DNA from: Pirellulales bacterium
Lineage (GTDB): Bacteria; Planctomycetota; Planctomycetia; Pirellulales; PALSA-1355
Reading direction: 5' to 3'
Length of the DNA: 64,000 nt
Assembly (NCBI GenBank): GCA_963733035.1
Contig: CAVTBU010000005.1
Span: 1,152,001 to 1,216,000, forward strand
Shown here: piece by piece, positions 26,052-33,260 of the stretch
How positions within the stretch are numbered: position 1 is the first letter of the stretch
How the letters are laid out: each line of letters starts with the position of its first letter
The notes under the pieces: model-generated
Seen by the model: only the letters and a program-made list of their open reading frames with translations
Databases searched by the model: none
Told to the model about the DNA's origin: nothing
Program-made: the position numbers and the translations under genes

Positions 26052-26999
26052 TTACCTGCCGGCGATGGTGCGGTAGTACTCGATCGATCGGCGAAGCCCC
26101 TCGGCGAAACTCACCTGCGGATCGTAGGCCAGGCACGCACGAGCCCGCGTGATATCGGCCAGGCTTTCGCGCACGTCGCCAACTCGCGGCGGCTGGTGAA
26201 CCGGTTTGATGCTGGTGCCCAGCAGCGAATTCAGATTATCGAGCAATTGCAGCAAGCTGGTTGTACGACCATTGGCCACGTTGAATACGCGTCCGGCGAC
26301 GAGTTTGGGGTCGGCGTCGGCGGCGAGCAAATTGCCGTGCACGACGTTGTCGACATACGTGAAGTCGCGCGATTGATGGCCGTCGCCATAGACGGTTGGC
26401 TGGCGTCCGGCGAGCATGGCGGTAATGAATAGCGGAATCACCGCCGAATACTGGCTATGGGGATCCTGTCGCGGCCCGAACACGTTGAAATACCGAATCG
26501 CGACCGTCTCGAAACCGTAGGTGGCGGTAAACGCGCCGCAATACGATTCCCCGGCGAACTTTGCCGCGCCATAGGGAGAAATCGGCGCCGGCAAATCCGA
26601 TTCGCGCTTGCTGGAAGTCGGCTGATCGCCATAGGCACTGCTTGAGGCGGCATAGACGAGGCGTCGTACGCCCGCCTTGCGTGCTTCATCCAGCACGATC
26701 AAGGTGCCCGTCACGCAAGCGGCGTGCGTTGCCAGCGGATGTTCAACGCTGCGCGGCACCGAAGCCAGCGCCGCCTCGTGAAAGACGCAATCGACTCCCT
26801 TGACGGCCTTGGCCACGGTCTGCGGGTCGGTAATGTCGCCTTCGATGAACTCGACGTCGCTGCCAAGGATTTCGACGTTGGCCCGGCTACCCGTCGACAG
26901 ATTATCGAGCACGCGCACACGGTCGCCACGGGCGAGAAGTCCCTGGGCAATATGAGACCCAACAAAGCCGGCACCGCCGGTAACCAAGAACGTGCGCAT
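26052..26999 (-). CDS. Extended SDR nucleotide-sugar epimerase (UDP-Glc/GlcNAc 4-epimerase, WbpP-like)
   Basis: VTGGAGFVGSH, AALASVPRSV, SPYGAAK, RYFNVFGPRQDP and SRDFTYV. Confidence 0.92.
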   Translation of the reverse strand: MRTFLVTGGAGFVGSHIAQGLLARGDRVRVLDNLSTGSRANVEILGSDVEFIEGDITDPQTVAKAVKGVDCVFHEAALASVPRSVEHPLATHAACVTGTLIVLDEARKAGVRRLVYAASSSAYGDQPTSSKRESDLPAPISPYGAAKFAGESYCGAFTATYGFETVAIRYFNVFGPRQDPHSQYSAVIPLFITAMLAGRQPTVYGDGHQSRDFTYVDNVVHGNLLAADADPKLVAGRVFNVANGRTTSLLQLLDNLNSLLGTSIKPVHQPPRVGDVRESLADITRARACLAYDPQVSFAEGLRRSIEYYRTIAGR

Positions 27000-27164
27000 C
27001 AAGATCCTCGTCAAACAGTCGTTGCGAAAGGTACTTCGAATGGGCTCTGAATTCTAGTTCACGGGGGCGGGTCGCACCACCGACGAGAATCTCGGGTGGT
27101 GTCCTAACAGTGAGGTGGTCGGATGGGAGGTCCGGTGAGGGCCGTGATTGGGGCTGTTTTTGCA

Positions 27165-27986
27165 TCAGTCCATGTAATTGTATTGGGGATGCATTCGGCA
27201 TTTTCCGGAATCGTACCCGTAGACAAAGCAGGTCCTGGTTTTATGGGGGCTCTTGGACGTGTCGAGATATTCGGCGTAGGCGATCACTATGATCACCCCG
27301 TTTTCAGACAGCACCCCGATATCTTCGTCGTTCAGCGGCATCGTATCGATGACGTTGTATGTCGTCGATGCGCCCGGTGCGAGAACGGCTTGATGCTGTG
27401 TTGCGTTGGCTGCTGTATGCAGCGCGGTAGAGATATTATCGATATCGATTCCGAGATCCGGGTAATGCGCCAGCACATCATCGTTCTGAAAGACTATCTG
27501 GCCGCCATCGCTGACTTTGATTTGTACGGCCACGGCATAACCAGTGACGATGGCCGGCGTCTTGCCTACATTTTTGAGCTGAATTGTCCCATGAATTGTA
27601 TCTGGAATTCCTGGTGGAGCGATTTCCGGCACATCAAAGCTCAGCCATGGCCGCTGGTCCAGCCGCATGACCTCCCATTGCTTGTCGGTGGCGTCCCATT
27701 GCCAATAGCCGACTATCACTTGGCCCAGCGTGAAAATCACCAAACTGGCGGAAAATATGAGCTGCCAGAACGCATAGCGACCAAATCGCCGTTTTGGCTG
27801 TTTCTTGGTTCTATCGGGCTTGGTTGTGTCATCATCGTCGCCGGGTTTCTCTGCATTGACAGACTTCTCTGGGGCCAGAGGCTCAGCGGGTGGCGCTGGT
27901 GGGGCCTCCTGATTGTTGGGTGCCTGCTTATTGCTCTGTCGCTTGCGCTCACGTCTGCGGGCCTTACGCTGGGCTTTCGTGGACAT
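27165..27986 (-). CDS. Hypothetical single-pass membrane protein (transposon cargo)
   Basis: Basic/Pro-rich N-terminus, TM segment WQLIFSASLVIFTLGQVIVGY, then a DQRPWL...KNVGKTPA beta-rich domain. GAAGGA lies upstream. Confidence 0.75.
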   Translation of the reverse strand: MSTKAQRKARRRERKRQSNKQAPNNQEAPPAPPAEPLAPEKSVNAEKPGDDDDTTKPDRTKKQPKRRFGRYAFWQLIFSASLVIFTLGQVIVGYWQWDATDKQWEVMRLDQRPWLSFDVPEIAPPGIPDTIHGTIQLKNVGKTPAIVTGYAVAVQIKVSDGGQIVFQNDDVLAHYPDLGIDIDNISTALHTAANATQHQAVLAPGASTTYNVIDTMPLNDEDIGVLSENGVIIVIAYAEYLDTSKSPHKTRTCFVYGYDSGKCRMHPQYNYMD

Positions 27987-28172
27987 TTCTCGTCGTCCTT
28001 CCGAACCTGACGCCTGAGTGTGATGTCAGTAGGGGCATGTAACCAATCTTTTCCGCCGTTTAATCGGTCGCTCAATGGGAGAGCGGCCCGCGTCTTGGCG
28101 GCGCAGGTGTTTTATAAACGCCCGTAGGGAGCGGCCTAATCCGCTGCCTGAGTTCGATTCTCACGCTCTCCG

Positions 28173-28346
28173 CTAGCGCTTTCTTCGCGCAGCCTTAAGC
28201 AGTATCTCCCGAGCCCACGTAGACGTGTTCGCACCGGCTGCGGCGTCTAGCTCAGCTCGCTCTTGCTCAGTAAGGCGGATGCGCAGTTCCGCGCTCTTTC
28301 GCTCGTCTGGCTCTTTGGGGGGCCTTCCCCTAGATGTAGTTTCCAT
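28173..28346 (-). CDS. Small ribbon-helix-helix (CopG/MobC-like) DNA-binding protein with N-terminal GRP motif
   Basis: METTSRGRPPKEPDERKSAELRIRLTEQERAELDAAAGANTSTWAREILLKAARRKR, divergent from the transposase. Confidence 0.75.
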   Translation of the reverse strand: METTSRGRPPKEPDERKSAELRIRLTEQERAELDAAAGANTSTWAREILLKAARRKR

Positions 28347-28353
28347 GCGATTT

Positions 28354-28414
28354 ATCATAGCAACAAAAAATATCCCCGCAAGGCTATTGCATCCTAATTA
28401 TTTGTTGCTACAAT
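28354..28414. promoter_or_regulatory. Mirrored divergent sigma70-type promoters sharing the inverted repeat TAGCAACAAA/TTTGTTGCTA
   Basis: Plus strand TTGCAT-16-TACAAT (28387-28414) and minus strand TTGCGG-16-TATGAT, both with a TGn extension. IR copies at 28358-28367 and 28401-28410. Confidence 0.65.
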
Positions 28415-28559
28415 AAATCGTAGTGATTGGGAGTAATGATCCCAATAAAAAACCCCGACTCGGCCCTGGCAGGCTGAATCGGGGGACAAACAACCAGGCT
28501 CTCGCTAGGCTGCTGTGACAAGCCAATTCTAGCGGAAGCCGCAACAAAGGCTACCCGCG

Positions 28560-29585
28560 ATGATGATTGCTTGTGCTCATGCGACGTTCCAGAAATACGG
28601 CAAAGACCGCAAGGGAATCCAGCGGTTTAAGTGTTCATTGTGCGGCAAGCGTTGGACGGAAGAACATGCCAAGCCGCTTGGCGAGATGCGCGTGCCCGTG
28701 GAAACCGCCAAGCTGACCTTACGTCTGCTGACGGAAGGCATGAGCATTCGAGCCACGGAGCGGACTACAGGCGTCCATCGTGATACGCTCTGCAAGCTGA
28801 TCGTATTCTTCGGCGATGCCTGCAAGCGGTTCCTAGACGATCGCATGCAGGGCCTACAACTGAGTCACCTGCAATTCGACGAACAGTGGACGTTCGTTGG
28901 CAAGAAACAGTCTCGCCTCACGATGACCGAACGTACTAGGTCGAGCGATATTGGCGACATTTATTTGTGGACCTGCATTGACCAGAAAACGAAGCTTCTG
29001 CCCGCGTTCCTGATTGGCAAACGTTCGGCGGACAATGCCCGTCGCTTCATGATGGACGTTGCGAGCCGCTTAACGTTTCCCAAGCCGCACCAGAGCGACG
29101 ACCAGAGCTATACGAAGCCCGGATATCGGCCAATCGTGCAAATCTCGACCGATGGATTCTCGGCCTACCCGGAAGCGGTGGACCTGGCGTTTGGACCTTA
29201 CGTGAAGTACGGCACGATAATCAAAGAGTACCGCAACGCCAGCATGATCTACACGCCGTCCGAAATGGTCGGCACGAAGCGGACTGGCGTTCGCGGGATA
29301 AGCGGCCGGAACCGGCGGACGATATGCACGAGCCACGTAGAGCGACTGAACGGTACCCAGCGGGTCTTCATGAAGCGGCTTAACCGATTGACACTGTGCT
29401 TCTCCAAGAAGCTTCGGAACCTGGAATGTGCTTTTGCAATGTTCGCGGCCTATTACAATTATTGCTGGCAGACTCGTAAGCCGGGCAAGAGCGGCCAGAA
29501 GCGGGGCACCGCTGCTATGATGGCTGGAATTGCTGGGCACGTGTGGAGCTTTGATGAGCTGTTTGAGGCAGTGCTATGCGGGTAA
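28560..29585 (+). CDS. IS1-family DDE transposase (single ORF, ISMhu11-like architecture)
   Basis: Zn ribbon (CAH...CSLC), HTH (GMSIRATERTTGVHRDT), catalytic QFDEQW / STDGF / HVERLN, RLTLCFSKK, and C-terminal AMMAGIAGHVWS. Confidence 0.92.
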   Translation: MMIACAHATFQKYGKDRKGIQRFKCSLCGKRWTEEHAKPLGEMRVPVETAKLTLRLLTEGMSIRATERTTGVHRDTLCKLIVFFGDACKRFLDDRMQGLQLSHLQFDEQWTFVGKKQSRLTMTERTRSSDIGDIYLWTCIDQKTKLLPAFLIGKRSADNARRFMMDVASRLTFPKPHQSDDQSYTKPGYRPIVQISTDGFSAYPEAVDLAFGPYVKYGTIIKEYRNASMIYTPSEMVGTKRTGVRGISGRNRRTICTSHVERLNGTQRVFMKRLNRLTLCFSKKLRNLECAFAMFAAYYNYCWQTRKPGKSGQKRGTAAMMAGIAGHVWSFDELFEAVLCG

Positions 29586-30073
29586 AAGCGGCATATGGGC
29601 AGCACTGGACATGGTTTGTATATTGTTGTATATTTCAGTTAAGCAGGAGCAACATGCCTTCCGATATTGAAGGGGGTACCAAGATGGTCGCGCCGAGGGA
29701 AGGGGACAGTCAGCGGATTCGGTTTGATGCCGCCGTTCCCATGCCCAAAAAGACCGTGCGCGTAATTGGCTACGCGCAAAAAGAAGGCCGAACGATTCTC
29801 AAAAACGATGGCAAATATCAGCATATCGTGGACATCGAGAAGCGTTTGGTTGATTTTGGAAATCTTGAAGAAACCTGCGATCTGGACATCCGCAGTTTTC
29901 ACGAATTTTTTGAATTGCGCGAGCGCGGAGGACTGTTGGGAAATATAAACCTCAGGGTGTTTTTTGCGCATCTCCCTGAGCGGAATGAAATCGTGATCTT
30001 AAAGACGTACAAAAAGGAGAGGAACGACCAAACGCCACTGAACCTACCCACGTTTGGTGGGCGCGCTGTGGGG

Positions 30074-31054
30074 TTATTTGTTGGACATTGGGTTTGAGTT
30101 TGGGGTATTGGGTTGGCGACCCGCGAGACCCTTCGCGGGTCTTGCGCGGTCGCGGTGCTCGTGGGCGGATGATGCTTGGAGAGCGGTATCTGCCAGAGTC
30201 CGCCGGAAGGCTGGGGCGCCGCTGGCGAGGCTTTCTTCGTACTCCACCGGGCTCAAGTGCCCCAGCGACGAATGACTCCGACGACGATTGTAGAACACTT
30301 CGATGTATTCAAACAGGCTTTGTCGAGCGACCTCTTGAGTCGTGTACTGTTCGTGATACACCAGCTCCGTCTTCAGCGTGCCGAAGAAGCTTTCCGCGAC
30401 GGCATTGTCGTAGCAGTTGCCACGGCGACTCATGCTGGCTTGCAGGCCATACCGCGTGAGCAAGCCCTGGTAGTCGTCGCAGGCGTACTGCACGCCCCGA
30501 TCGCTGTGATGCAACACCTCGTTCTGCGGCCGCCGCTGCTCGATCGCCAACCGCAGCGCCCGCAAGCACAAGTCCGCAGCCAGCGAATCGCTGGTGGCCC
30601 AGCCCACGATCTTCCGCGAACACAAGTCGATCACCACCGCCAAGTACAACCAGCCCTCGGCCGTGCGGACGTACGTGATGTCGGCCGCCCAGGCCCGATC
30701 GGGCTGCGGCTGGTAAAACGCCCGATTCAGCCGGTTCGGAGCGATCGGATGGGCGTGACGGCTTTCGGTCGTCCGGACGCGGAACCGGCGATGCATTTTC
30801 GAACGCAGACCGGCGGCACGCATCAGCTTGGCCACCGTGTTCTTCGAGCAGCGAACGTCTTCTGCGATCAGGTCGCGATGCACGCGCGGCGAGCCGTACA
30901 CCGCGCGGCTCCGCTCGTGCACGCGGCGGATCTGGTCGGTCAGCTTCGCCCGCCGCTCGGCGGTTACGCTCGGCGCACGCTTCCACCAGGCGTAGTAACC
31001 GCTCCTGGTTACCTGCAAAACTCGGCACATCACGTTCACCGGAAACTCCCGCAT
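30074..31054 (-). CDS. IS3 transposase OrfB (integrase core)
   Basis: YGSPR, WAADITY, WLYLAVVIDL, HSDRGVQY, CYDNAVAESFFGTLK and YNRRRSHSSLG. Confidence 0.96.
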   Translation of the reverse strand: MREFPVNVMCRVLQVTRSGYYAWWKRAPSVTAERRAKLTDQIRRVHERSRAVYGSPRVHRDLIAEDVRCSKNTVAKLMRAAGLRSKMHRRFRVRTTESRHAHPIAPNRLNRAFYQPQPDRAWAADITYVRTAEGWLYLAVVIDLCSRKIVGWATSDSLAADLCLRALRLAIEQRRPQNEVLHHSDRGVQYACDDYQGLLTRYGLQASMSRRGNCYDNAVAESFFGTLKTELVYHEQYTTQEVARQSLFEYIEVFYNRRRSHSSLGHLSPVEYEESLASGAPAFRRTLADTALQASSAHEHRDRARPAKGLAGRQPNTPNSNPMSNK

Positions 31055-31077
31055 GTGATCCTTGATGAACGCGAATC

Positions 31078-31359
31078 TCAGGGCTGGTGCTTGGCGAAGA
31101 AGGCCGTCGCTTTTTTTAAAATCTCACGCTCCATGAGGAGCCGCTTGTTCTCCTCCCGCAGCCGCCGCAGTTCCGCCCGCAAAGCCGAGTCACCGCTCGC
31201 GCTGACGCCCACTTCCGGCCCGAACTTCTTCAGCCAATTGCGGATCGAGGCGGCGTCCACGCCCAGGCTCTTGGCCGCCTCCACGACCGTATAGCCCTGC
31301 TGGTTCACCAACTTGACCGCCGACACCTTGAACTCACGCGAATACACTCGACGACCCAT
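31078..31359 (-). CDS. IS3 transposase OrfA; -1 frameshift site AAAAAAAG near 31110-31117
   Basis: YSREFK..AVKLV, HTH, leucine zipper ELRRLREEN...EREILKKATAFFAK; TTAAAAAAAGCG on the minus strand. Confidence 0.95.
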   Translation of the reverse strand: MGRRVYSREFKVSAVKLVNQQGYTVVEAAKSLGVDAASIRNWLKKFGPEVGVSASGDSALRAELRRLREENKRLLMEREILKKATAFFAKHQP

Positions 31360-31565
31360 GACACGCTCCTTTCACCGGCATTATGCCAGTTCTGTCGCGC
31401 GCCACGAATCGTGGGGAAGGTCACCACCATACATCGTGATCATCCTTCGCGATCGGCTCGCGAGGTATCTCGATGGCCAATTGCAGGAAGGAATTGCGAC
31501 TCACCCGAAGTCGAAACATCGCACTCGGTAAAGTTGCGACTCCACCAACGGAGATGGAATTAATC

Positions 31566-32018
31566 ATGTCAGTCACTACAGAGCGAAAGAGATTTGTGCA
31601 GAAAGGCGCCGAGCGTCTGATTAGTTTGCCTAGTGATAAGCTGGAACAACTTCAGCAGCTCCGCGACTATTTCGGTCGCGCCAGAACACAACGGGAGCGC
31701 CGCGAGATAATTGATGCTGTAGCCGAGCTGATTTGGCCACCCAATGACGGAACAAAGGCGGTAAATCTTGAATTAGGCATCGACAAGAGAGCCCGTGCCA
31801 AGGTAGACAATTACCGAGAGCAGGTTGGGAACGCAATTCGGCGGAGACGCGAGAAGCTGAATATGACCCAGGAAGAACTTGCGAAACTAGCCGGCATCCC
31901 ACAAAGCCATGTTTCGCGACTTGAGCAAGGGCGACATGCGCCGACTCACATTACTGTCAAGCGGCTGGCGAAGGCACTGAAAACTCGCCCCGCTAAGCTC
32001 GATCCAGGATTCGACTAA
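31566..32018 (+). CDS. XRE-family HTH protein, probable HigA-like antitoxin
   Basis: C-terminal IRRRREKLNMTQEELAKLAGIPQSHVSRLEQGRHAP; lies directly downstream of the toxin. Confidence 0.85.
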   Translation: MSVTTERKRFVQKGAERLISLPSDKLEQLQQLRDYFGRARTQRERREIIDAVAELIWPPNDGTKAVNLELGIDKRARAKVDNYREQVGNAIRRRREKLNMTQEELAKLAGIPQSHVSRLEQGRHAPTHITVKRLAKALKTRPAKLDPGFD

Positions 32019-32039
32019 ATCGTACGGATTATCTCACAC

Positions 32040-32065
32040 GCCCCGGCCCCCTGCCGGGGCTTTTT
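32040..32065 (+). terminator. Intrinsic terminator after the antitoxin
   Basis: GCCCCGGC-CCCCT-GCCGGGGC followed by TTTTT. Confidence 0.8.
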
Positions 32066-32086
32066 CATGCGCGGTAGAATCGCCAT

Positions 32087-32365
32087 ATGAGCCAATTCAC
32101 TCTCAAGCGGATTGCTTTTGCCGTGTTCTGGCTCGGTGTGTGGTTCGCAGCCTGGACGGTTCATGCCGCTTCATTCAAGCAAGGTCCATACCAAGGGATT
32201 CTGATGCCGCTATATTGCGTGCGGATAGCAGCTCCGTTCACTGCGATTGGCGCACTTTTCGGTCGCCCATGGCTTGGAACCTCAGTCGGGTGCAGCGTCT
32301 TCATCTTGATTGTCTTGGCGCTGTTGCTGGCAATATCGTTCGGAGGCGGCGGCTGGGCAATTTAA
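32087..32365 (+). CDS. Small 3-TM membrane protein (transposon cargo)
   Basis: TAGAAT -10-like element just upstream; three hydrophobic segments including AIGALFGRPWLG. Confidence 0.65.
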   Translation: MSQFTLKRIAFAVFWLGVWFAAWTVHAASFKQGPYQGILMPLYCVRIAAPFTAIGALFGRPWLGTSVGCSVFILIVLALLLAISFGGGGWAI

Positions 32366-32444
32366 ATGCGCAAATGTCGGTCCCAATTCGGAACCACCAC
32401 ACTATTAGGACACTACCGAATCTCGCCCATGCGGCGTTTCGCGT

Positions 32445-33260
32445 CTAGTCGTTTACGACAATGCAACCAGCTACGTTCGCGCCGCTGGCCCGCAGCGCGT
32501 TGATTGTCGCGCTGGCATTGGCGCGCCGCGTATGGGGGCGTGAAAGCACGTAGTAGACCGCGTCGCAGCGCGCCGCCAGCCAGCCGGTTTCGGGCTCGGC
32601 CTGGTTGGCCAAGCCGATCAGCACGGTGCGATACAAGGGACGGAGGGCCCCCCAACCGAACTGCGGCCGTTCGAACGTGGGGACCTGGCCGTTTCCCCGC
32701 GCCACGAAATCGATTTTCGCCACATTCGTCGGATGAATGATATCCGGCCAAGGCACCTCTCCGAGCATGGCCTCGATCATGCCGGGCCCGGGTCGCGAAA
32801 CGGTCTTCGAGAGACGTCCATTTCGCAAATCTCCGTCCACCAGCAGCACGTCGGCGGCGGAGTGCAGCGAGAAGCACTGGGCCAGTTGCGTCATCGAAAA
32901 GTTTGGCTCAACCCACCGATCGGCCGCCACGAACAACAGGACGTTGCTATAGTTCGCCGACAATTGATCGCCAATCCGGGTGGCCATCTCAAGGTAGTAG
33001 TCGGCCGGATTGGGCGAAATCGGCAGCACGCACCTTTCGAACGGGGCGGTTGGAAGCGCCGGACGCACCGGAGGTGAGGCGAGCGGCTCGCTCTCGCTTG
33101 GCGCGACCGTCTCCGCGGCCTGGTCGAGCAAGCCGGCCGTCTCGTCGAGTACGGCTTCCCACGATACCTGCGGCGCGGGCGGATCCGCGGGAGGCGACTC
33201 CATGGCCGGTTCGTGGGCGCGAGCGTCGAGCGTCTTGAGCGCGTCCAACATTCGTCCCAT
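32445..33260 (-). CDS. CpsD/CapB (BY-kinase/MinD-like) family protein, degenerate
   Basis: MGRMLDALK N-terminus, VLLVDGDLR, CDAVYYVL and C-terminal GANVAGCIV. No intact Walker A. Confidence 0.7.
   Translation of the reverse strand: MGRMLDALKTLDARAHEPAMESPPADPPAPQVSWEAVLDETAGLLDQAAETVAPSESEPLASPPVRPALPTAPFERCVLPISPNPADYYLEMATRIGDQLSANYSNVLLFVAADRWVEPNFSMTQLAQCFSLHSAADVLLVDGDLRNGRLSKTVSRPGPGMIEAMLGEVPWPDIIHPTNVAKIDFVARGNGQVPTFERPQFGWGALRPLYRTVLIGLANQAEPETGWLAARCDAVYYVLSRPHTRRANASATINALRASGANVAGCIVVND

Follow-up and report, generated by a model that had tools for sequence, protein, structure and literature searches.

The 64,000-nucleotide stretch of Pirellulales DNA analyzed here (the window; contig CAVTBU010000005.1 of assembly GCA_963733035.1) contains, at positions 27087-32425, a 5.3-kb unit that is a real, recently inserted transporter insertion sequence (IS) of the IS1 family. 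Very probably it is a single autonomous-looking IS1-family transposon with a core trio (a transposase, a ribbon-helix-helix (RHH) protein and a tRNA-like RNA with the anticodon UAU) and exchangeable cargo, in which the preferred reading of the RNA is that it reads or senses AUA codons. Positions are given in window numbering, unless preceded by a contig or locus name; the window corresponds to G000:C5:1152001-1216000, where G000 is this genome and C4, C5, C6 and C8 are its contigs. The unit is bounded by four features:

27087-27094, no strand: left copy of the target-site duplication, GAATCTCG, 8 bp, read directly from the sequence and present once at the empty-site joint
27095-27122, plus strand: left terminal inverted repeat (TIR), of which 25 bp (27095-27119) match the right end, while the family profile reaches about 28 bp
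32393-32417, minus strand: right TIR, defined by its match to the left end
32418-32425, no strand: right copy of the duplication, GAATCTCG, read directly and again placed by the empty-site joint

The two TIRs (left, GGTGGTGTCCTAACAGTGAGGTGGT; right, read on the other strand, GGTAGTGTCCTAATAGTGTGGTGGT) are identical at 22 of 25 positions, with three substitutions, and the consensus across the family is GGTAGTGTCCTAAnAGTGnGkTGsT. A first-pass annotation, made from the letters of the window, had already proposed these outer coordinates, this degree of TIR identity and a perfect 8-bp duplication, and all of them were re-read as claimed. A genome-wide TIR scan that allowed up to six substitutions found only these ends, one sibling element and a few remnants, and so the ends are not a chance pairing. 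The element is 5323 bp long, and measures 3934 bp (about 3.9 kb had been estimated) once a nested IS3-family element and its duplication are removed.

The target site is also seen in its unoccupied form. In a soil-metagenome contig, position 27086 is followed directly by 32418, and exactly 5331 bp are missing, equal to the element (5323 bp) and one copy of the duplication (8 bp). At this joint eight letters fit either side with none between, which gives a single GAATCTCG. Four soil-metagenome runs of one study were searched, and the joint was seen in run X1, as one contig with a low depth of 2.1 and 61 letters on its shorter side. Run X1 also has contigs that are 100% identical to the interior of the element; because the joint contig and the interior contigs share that run, the filled and empty alleles coexist in the X1 sample. 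No contig among those listed from the metagenome runs forms the joint expected of an IS3-free form of the element.

Related genomes give a consistent picture. The insertion lies in a polysaccharide-type gene cluster, between a gene for an NAD-dependent epimerase and its upstream neighbor, which encodes a 271-aa protein. Among the 30 related genomes searched, these two flanking genes are found on one contig at a distance of 77-171 bp in nine relatives and of 564 bp in one further relative, and none of the ten has the element at this locus. In two genomes of the same genus, the spacers align through the junction at approximately 72% identity, and are too diverged to display the single GAATCTCG themselves. 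Passengers and TIRs persisting next to a missing transposase would have pointed to resident genes; instead, the relatives lack transposase, passengers and TIRs alike.

A second full element is present in this genome at G000:C8:74032-77760. This sibling (3729 bp) has the same ends, its own duplication (CGAATTGC), a transposase that is 89% identical and a related RHH gene, and otherwise carries different cargo. A sibling with other cargo and an empty site with a single duplication copy were among the checks that the first-pass annotation had named; together with the relatives they bear out its description of a recently inserted, non-composite IS1-family cargo transposon.

The ends also delimit elements in other genomes. 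When 79 loci were scanned with a profile built from nine ends, 36 had an end upstream and an inverted end downstream of the transposase. In 34 of these 36, the 8 bp just outside the two predicted ends are identical. The exceptions are L087, whose duplication becomes exact after a 1-bp shift of one boundary, and L051, where the script had chosen one of two left candidates. The 34 delimited elements measure 1805-6993 bp; the two shortest (L076 and L085) hold transposase fragments only, and no element with a full transposase is shorter than 2575 bp. In 12 of the 34, only about 30 bp separate the transposase match from the right end, and every element with a full-length transposase has a left arm of at least 1.3 kb.

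It is very improbable that the 5.3 kb is instead a shorter IS that sits beside chromosomal genes between solo ends, or a composite. Solo and clustered family ends do occur in this genome (a solo end at C4:91643, and a cluster at C6:941704-944836), so that the arrangement is conceivable, but the empty-site joint falls exactly at the outer TIR edges and the relatives are without the whole unit. The size limit of full-transposase elements speaks against a shorter IS as well, as do the recurrence of cargo modules within other delimited elements (see below) and the GC content, which is low uniformly along the unit (54.0% without the IS3, versus 61-63% in the flanks).

The cluster of ends on C6 is an observation in its own right. 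Locus L003 (3705-7540, or C6:941704-945540) has five right-end-like TIRs in one orientation and no left ends, and these alternate with copies of a terminator/TAGAAT motif (described below) and with small open reading frames (ORFs) for membrane proteins that start MSD..NPYR.P. Either repeated nested or one-ended insertion at a hot spot or the decay of an array could account for this arrangement. A further derivative, L002 (C5:1768206-1768878), is 673 bp long, has its own 8-bp duplication (GGCATCCG) and lacks a transposase; it contains only the conserved motif and an ORF for a 95-aa membrane protein, and thus resembles a miniature inverted-repeat transposable element that still moves a gene.

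Three genes form the core of the element:

28078-28173, plus strand: tRNA-like gene, anticodon UAU, 96 nt, called by ARAGORN and scoring 93.4 bits with the covariance model described below
28173-28358, minus strand: RHH protein gene, 61 aa, divergent from the transposase gene and convergent with the tRNA-like gene
28560-29585, plus strand: transposase gene, 341 aa, a single ORF with an N-terminal CHCC zinc-binding motif and the DDE residues D141, D198 and E261

The transposase is central, as had been noted (distances of about 1.5 and 2.8 kb to the ends were claimed; those of the ORF are 1465 bp on the left and 2832 bp on the right). Its zinc-binding and catalytic residues (C5, H7, C25, C28, D141, D198 and E261) are kept in 27-28 of 28 full-length members. 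The protein passes the Pfam model DDE_Tnp_IS1 (PF03400; 27.5 bits, cut-off 24.1) and the NCBIfam model of the IS1/IS1595 N-terminal zinc-binding domain (NF050000; 32.3 bits, cut-off 28), and its scores with no other transposase family exceed those with the IS1 models. By the ISfinder definition, IS1-family elements have TIRs that start with GGT and a target duplication of 8-9 bp, and both are found here. The family has single-ORF and ISMhu11 subgroups, some with passengers, in addition to the classical group, in which InsA and InsB' are two ORFs joined by a -1 frameshift. Here the zinc finger and the DDE domain share one uninterrupted ORF of 341 aa, and therefore only the single-ORF subgroups are possible. 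Our literature search found no paper on "ISMhu11", and a sequence search of solved structures returned nothing for the transposase or for the toxin-like protein of the cargo.

Two points temper the assignment as a transposon of this family: the Pfam match spans just 32 residues of the transposase (255-286), and the NCBIfam IS1 equivalog model NF033558 reaches 78.7 bits and so stays under its cut-off of 100. The DDE transposase would bind both inverted ends (25-28 bp) and join them to a target cut with an 8-bp stagger, which would produce the GAATCTCG duplication. There are 3455 homologues at E<=0.001; the best 120 of these comprise the protein itself and 119 sequences at 72-84% identity, mostly from Pirellulales, and wherever a source (NCBI or JGI) gives a name among these 119 it is "IS1 family transposase". 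The suggestion that the family might be undescribed hence does not hold for the transposase, although the architecture of the element may be undescribed.

The term transporter IS refers to passenger genes that lie within the inverted repeats of the IS itself and are moved as a unit (PMC9330008). The present element has this organization: the empty site begins and ends exactly at its outer ends, and siblings hold other cargo between the same ends.

Clustering the ORFs of 36 elements (the 34 delimited ones and two of this genome) separates core from cargo. The transposase is common to 36 of 36 elements and the small divergent RHH protein upstream of it to 29 of 36; all other proteins vary. The first-pass annotation had counted the RHH regulator as a passenger along with a membrane protein, a toxin-antitoxin (TA) pair and a small transmembrane protein; the latter three are indeed passengers, but the RHH gene belongs to the core. 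It had also overlooked the tRNA-like gene at 28078-28173, which is a conserved core part. The RHH alignment has a strand-helix-helix pattern, and profile matches point to NikA (2ba3, E=0.0019) and, more weakly, to CopG (0.23) and TacA-type antitoxins; PHROGs gives a weak "DNA binding protein" match (E=1.6e-4). The protein would act as a repressor of the promoter region that it shares with the transposase gene.

The tRNA-like gene is on the transposase strand, approximately 390 bp upstream of the transposase gene, and was called by ARAGORN as a tRNA-Ile(UAU) that ends at the stop codon of the RHH gene. ARAGORN finds such an RNA in only 4 of the 36 elements. BLAST finds the stretch in 20 of 36, and the alignment of these 20 gave a covariance model (R1). 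Across 84 sources this model matched 46 times, with a score of at least 68 bits in 40 cases. All but one of the 46 are on the transposase strand, typically 350-540 bp before the transposase start. In the alignment of the 46 copies, 94.3% of the cells of the stems are paired, versus 48-57% with slid partners and 79.5% in shuffled alignments, none of 500 shuffles reaches the observed value, and 23 of 29 pairs have a compensatory change; these counts rest on an alignment fitted to the structure of the model, which lowers their weight in favor of the fold.

The fold is tRNA-like but unusual. The acceptor helix consists of 6+2 pairs around one unpaired position and is stacked on a T stem of three pairs (93-100% paired, with compensatory changes). 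The other helices are a 5-pair D hairpin, a 5-pair anticodon stem and a long variable arm, in which all five pairs have a compensatory change. An extra helix of three pairs (columns 10-12 with 53-55) creates a five-way junction; it is 99.2% paired and two of its three pairs are compensatory, again in the model-fitted alignment. The anticodon UAU and A37 are present in 46 of 46 copies, as is the G that follows the acceptor stem, and U33 and the GG of the D loop in 45 of 46. Of the T-loop sequences, TTCGATT occurs in 24 copies and ATCGTAA in 11, the latter amounting to a swap of T54:A58 to A54:T58. The gene does not encode CCA; after the acceptor stem come GC and the RHH stop codon.

The RNA is widely distributed. 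Of 121 genomes chosen from across the order, 42 have R1 matches (33 of 98 high-quality genomes; 32 of 81 genera), with one to six copies per genome and a single copy in this one. When 29 loci were fetched by means of the RNA alone, the RNA was followed in 22 of them, at 135-547 bp and on its own strand, by an IS1-type transposase, in some cases one only 30-38% identical to the transposase of this element, and 14 had an RHH gene 6-27 bp after the RNA on the opposite strand; seven have no transposase within 1.5 kb. The public runs listed include no RNA run.

These features agree with a published class. Mukai et al. (Nucleic Acids Res 2017; PMC5389517) describe allo-tRNA(UAU) as having a 12-layer acceptor/T branch (8/4 or 9/3), a long variable arm and possibly a five-stem junction, often near TA genes and in one case overlapping a "transposon-related protein". 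The present RNA has a 9/3-type acceptor branch, the long variable arm, the UAU anticodon and the five-stem junction. We found no paper that links an IS1 element or IS1-type transposon with a tRNA or with allo-tRNA(UAU), in a search that covered neither subscription journals nor ISfinder.

The codon that UAU would read has a peculiar distribution in the transposase gene. ATA codons occur here at residues 220, 247 and 255. Across 77 loci, ATA accounts for 63 of 65 Ile codons at 247 and 68 of 74 at 255, while the neighboring invariant residues T257, S258, V260, R262 and T266 use 4-6 synonymous codons. At residue 244, 42 loci have Ile, and 23 of them encode it with ATA. Counted back from the catalytic E261, the two fixed codons are at distances of 14 and 6 codons. 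For comparison, 4.4% of the Ile codons in the host's long ORFs are ATA, and the genes of the element itself have ATA for 14 of 63 Ile residues. The RHH alignment has no column with three or more ATA codons. A separate feature of the region is the context of ATA255 (codons 254-256; window 29319-29327): of the 59 Thr codons in the preceding position, 55 are ACG and none is ACC, a codon that is common at other Thr sites, so that ACG-ATA-TGC may itself be selected, as a codon-pair effect or a nucleotide motif.

Our tentative preference is that the RNA would read, or at least sense, the rare AUA codons just before the catalytic Glu, and that the element would thereby gate the production of its own transposase. 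Several observations pull in the other direction. Rfam at E<=0.1 has no match over the element, the sibling or the short derivative, and this includes its tRNA model. The host has a canonical tRNA-Ile(UAU) of its own. Loci that have the RNA retain both ATA codons in 27 of 38 cases and loci that lack it in 20 of 26, which gives no link in cis, and ATA use outside the fixed codons is alike (9.9% with the RNA, 7.2% without). The RNA has serine-type features, namely an acceptor stem GGAGAG/CTCTCC plus following G that equals those of host tRNA-Ser genes, and the long variable arm. Despite these features, replacements at 247 and 255 in relatives are mostly hydrophobic (Met, Val, Leu, Ile), with Thr once, Ala twice, His once and Tyr once as the rarer cases. 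Finally, six allo-tRNA(UAU) variants were inactive as amber suppressors in Escherichia coli and two of the six were lethal, and Mukai et al. suggest that these RNAs have no use in translation (PMC5389517); the inactivity in E. coli is repeated in a 2020 review (PMC7609411).

A possible explanation, which we rank second, is that the RNA is not used in translation, but is a processing or insulating signal, or a decoy or target tied to the TA and defense cargo. If it were a processing signal, cleavage by tRNA-end processing would part the transposase message from cargo transcripts or from transcripts that read in from outside. Under either alternative, the retained ATA codons would simply slow translation and so keep the transposase scarce. 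The behavior of the published variants in E. coli, the missing link in cis to ATA retention, the silence of the Rfam tRNA model and the position upstream of the transposase on the same strand are all compatible with such a role. A mere processing signal, however, would not need the near-invariance of UAU, U33 and A37 while the surrounding stems covary. The contacts of the tRNA elbow are also kept (the D-loop GG and the T loop with its 54:58 swap), and the codon read by UAU is the very codon frozen in the transposase.

The serine-type features suggest a further scheme, which we consider unlikely. Here the RNA would be charged with Ser and would compete with the host tRNA-Ile at the two AUA codons, so that a Ser version at 247/255 would be made beside the host-made Ile version, one of them the enzyme and the other inhibitory or inactive; improbable as it is, the ratio of the two tRNAs would then set the proportion of active (Ile) to altered (Ser) enzyme. 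The match of the acceptor stem to host tRNA-Ser, the G found in every copy and the class II long variable arm fit this scheme, and other allo-tRNAs insert Ser at non-Ser codons in E. coli (PMC7609411). Ser itself is never seen at 247 or 255 in the 28-member alignment and Thr only once, the hydrophobic character of the replacements is at odds with a Ser version, and the allo-tRNA(UAU) variants of Mukai et al. were inactive in E. coli (PMC5389517).

The host tRNA-Ile(UAU) mentioned above is a 74-nt gene at C6:241988, from which the acceptor stem of the element's RNA differs. It is the host's only canonical Ile-UAU gene and lies within a cluster of ARAGORN calls at C6:241737-263265 that includes Ile-GAU, two Ser, Leu and Arg, as well as unusually long calls for Cys (92 nt) and Ala (89 nt). 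This cluster may be an array on another mobile element, in which case the host's reader of AUA would be accessory.

The cargo of the element lies on both sides of the transposase gene and has itself been invaded by the IS3:

27165-27986, minus strand: ORF for a 273-aa protein with one predicted membrane span and no family match
29684-30038, plus strand: 5' portion of a gene for a HigB/RelE-like toxin, interrupted by the IS3, with an inferred start and 43% identity to the homologue in L030
30039-31423, minus strand: nested IS3-family IS, 1385 bp, with orfA at 31078-31359 and orfB at 30074-31054 (NCBIfam IS3, 352.9 bits)
31424-31531, plus strand: displaced 3' toxin fragment, whose frame-0 translation past the IS3 resembles the C-terminal residues of the L030 protein by eye
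31554-32018, plus strand: HigA-like antitoxin gene with a C-terminal Xre-type helix-turn-helix (HTH), open from 31473, start at 31554 inferred
32040-32086, plus strand: conserved terminator-like motif, a GC hairpin and T-run followed by TAGAAT about 8 nt before an ATG
32087-32365, plus strand: ORF for a small membrane protein of 92 aa, no family match

The TA pair claimed earlier is a passenger, but its toxin gene is not intact in the window. The product of the 5' part aligns at 43% identity with residues 13-118 of a 149-aa protein that is intact in the related element L030, and the IS3 cuts the gene near residue 116 of this 149-residue homologue, approximately 30 codons from its 3' end. The IS3 is flanked by the duplication CCAC (30035-30038 and 31424-31427) and has five other full copies in the genome at 99.5-99.9% identity, six in all; because of these near-identical copies we regard it as a late arrival. 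It has been very recently active, and here it inactivated the toxin gene. A 262-bp fragment of it lies at C6:843362-843623.

The toxin-like protein is not named by Pfam, NCBIfam, PADLOC or PHROGs. Matches to Pfam Gp49, all of them weak, are confined to 5 of 31 homologues. A language-model atlas points to clusters of "plasmid stabilization system" and Gp49 proteins, which we take as a lead only. The AlphaFold model of the L030 homologue has a mean predicted local distance difference test (pLDDT) score of 85.2. With this model, the top 14 PDB matches listed by Foldseek are all HigB (HigB2, HigB1), RelE or YoeB-type toxins, the best at E=3.7e-4 with template modeling (TM) scores of 0.47/0.56. The antitoxin matches Pfam HTH_3 (1.2e-16), is 43% identical to the partner gene product in L030, and has regulator matches in PADLOC and PHROGs. 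We read the toxin and HTH genes together as a HigB/HigA-like pair, the toxin being without its C-terminal helix. The pair would have served as addiction or defense cargo, with the IS3 landing later in the toxin gene.

The 92-aa protein gene appears, judging by its upstream sequence, to have its own terminator-plus-promoter-like signal. The hairpin (32040-32060; eight G-C pairs and a T-run) is the best terminator-like site in the element, and the hairpin/TAGAAT motif has seven copies in the genome, each near a right end. Matches to sigma-70-like promoters are at chance level (3 versus 2.9 expected), and we make no promoter claim beyond the TAGAAT of the motif. Neither the 273-aa nor the 92-aa protein has a match in Pfam, NCBIfam, PADLOC or PHROGs, and PADLOC and PHROGs together name no cargo besides the HTH regulator and the HEPN-like protein of the sibling. 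As to the surroundings, the insertion splits the epimerase gene from the upstream genes of its cluster (26052-27014 and 32445-33260), all on the minus strand. The 273-aa cargo gene points outward through the left end toward the epimerase gene, and read-out transcription may substitute for the lost upstream promoter.

The sibling on C8 (locus L001) differs in several details. An in-frame TGA (L001 3635-3637) replaces the invariant Cys139 of its transposase, the tRNA-like gene is missing, and the element is flanked by a gene for a 681-aa J-domain-like protein on one side and an Hsp70-like gene on the other. Its 201-aa protein was considered as a HEPN protein on the basis of an Rx4H motif, but the Pfam HEPN-type matches are below threshold (E=0.003-0.06), and we therefore call it HEPN-like only; its PHROGs match is phrog_22031.

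Cargo modules are shuffled among elements. The toxin/HTH pair is also found in L030, where it is upstream of the transposase; the 273-aa membrane protein recurs as cargo in L020 (cluster 25), and the sibling's pair of 79-aa and 201-aa proteins in L061. A Pfam scan covered 150 of 163 crude candidate ORFs. Of the other 13, four belong to L089 and nine to the window or the sibling on C8; seven of these nine were scanned separately and two overlap the nested IS3. Matches at E<=1e-4 were obtained for 26 cargo ORFs, 20 of which are TA or defense types, in 16 of 34 elements, in keeping with the earlier suggestion that the element shuttles TA or defense genes. These 20 matches are to the SocA/Panacea antitoxin domain (four), PIN (three), MazF/PemK, ParE, Fic and NYN (one each), GmrSD (two halves of one gene), DNA methylase (four, one of them fused to Mrr), IrrE-type peptidase (one) and Xre HTH (one). 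The remaining matches include a Ser/Thr kinase and a nested transposase of the Mutator family. The latter match is in L013, and a minus-strand ORF of L044 is in the same cluster. The largest relatives, L029 (4775-10483) and L044 (4761-11753), carry small defense islands: L029 combines a split GmrSD gene with genes for an NYN protein and a DNA methylase, and L044 has a methylase.

On the reading preferred here, the family is a widespread carrier of TA, restriction-modification and other defense genes in Planctomycetota, and routine annotation would display each such element as a lone "IS1 family transposase". If the reading of the RNA as allo-tRNA(UAU) holds, the element provides a genetic home for the most abundant group of allo-tRNAs, the role of which has been open since 2017, and the reported nearness of allo-tRNA(UAU) to TA genes would simply reflect the cargo of transposons. 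The invariant UAU, along with two frozen AUA codons beside a catalytic residue, makes it a testable idea that a private tRNA controls the transposon's enzyme. Were the Ser/Ile competition true, it would be a recoding switch owned by a mobile element, and a function for the most abundant allo-tRNA class.

Compared with known systems, the element resembles the IS1 family and its ISMhu11-type transporter ISs in its zinc-binding domain, a DDE domain with partial matches to the IS1 models, GGT ends, 8-bp duplication and internal passengers. It differs in having one long ORF instead of an InsA/InsB' pair, a score below the NCBIfam equivalog cut-off, a divergent RHH gene in most elements and usually an allo-tRNA-like gene, with no cargo-free form among the 34 delimited elements. 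Elements of the Tn3 and IS1595 families also move accessory genes, often addiction modules, as an integral part by means of a single transposase and TIRs; the present element has a transposase of another family and no resolvase, and we know of no Tn3- or IS1595-family element with a tRNA-like core gene. The cargo pair is like HigB-HigA modules in that the toxin gene precedes an Xre-HTH antitoxin gene and in that the predicted fold of the L030 homologue is of the HigB/RelE/YoeB type. It is unlike them in the extra C-terminal helix of the toxin, the long N-terminal extension of the antitoxin, the lack of a Pfam match for the toxin and the interruption of its gene by the IS3. The transporter IS as a kind is itself known, and the trio of transposase, RHH protein and allo-tRNA(UAU) is a variant undescribed in searchable papers. 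With allo-tRNA(UAU), the RNA shares the 9/3-type branch, the long variable arm, the G after the acceptor stem, the UAU anticodon and the TA genes nearby, a match made by description. The hosts listed in the 2020 review are Clostridia, Proteobacteria and Acidobacteria (PMC7609411), whereas the present copies are found in Pirellulales; in these, the RNA is a fixed component of a single transposon family, and the TA genes belong to its cargo.

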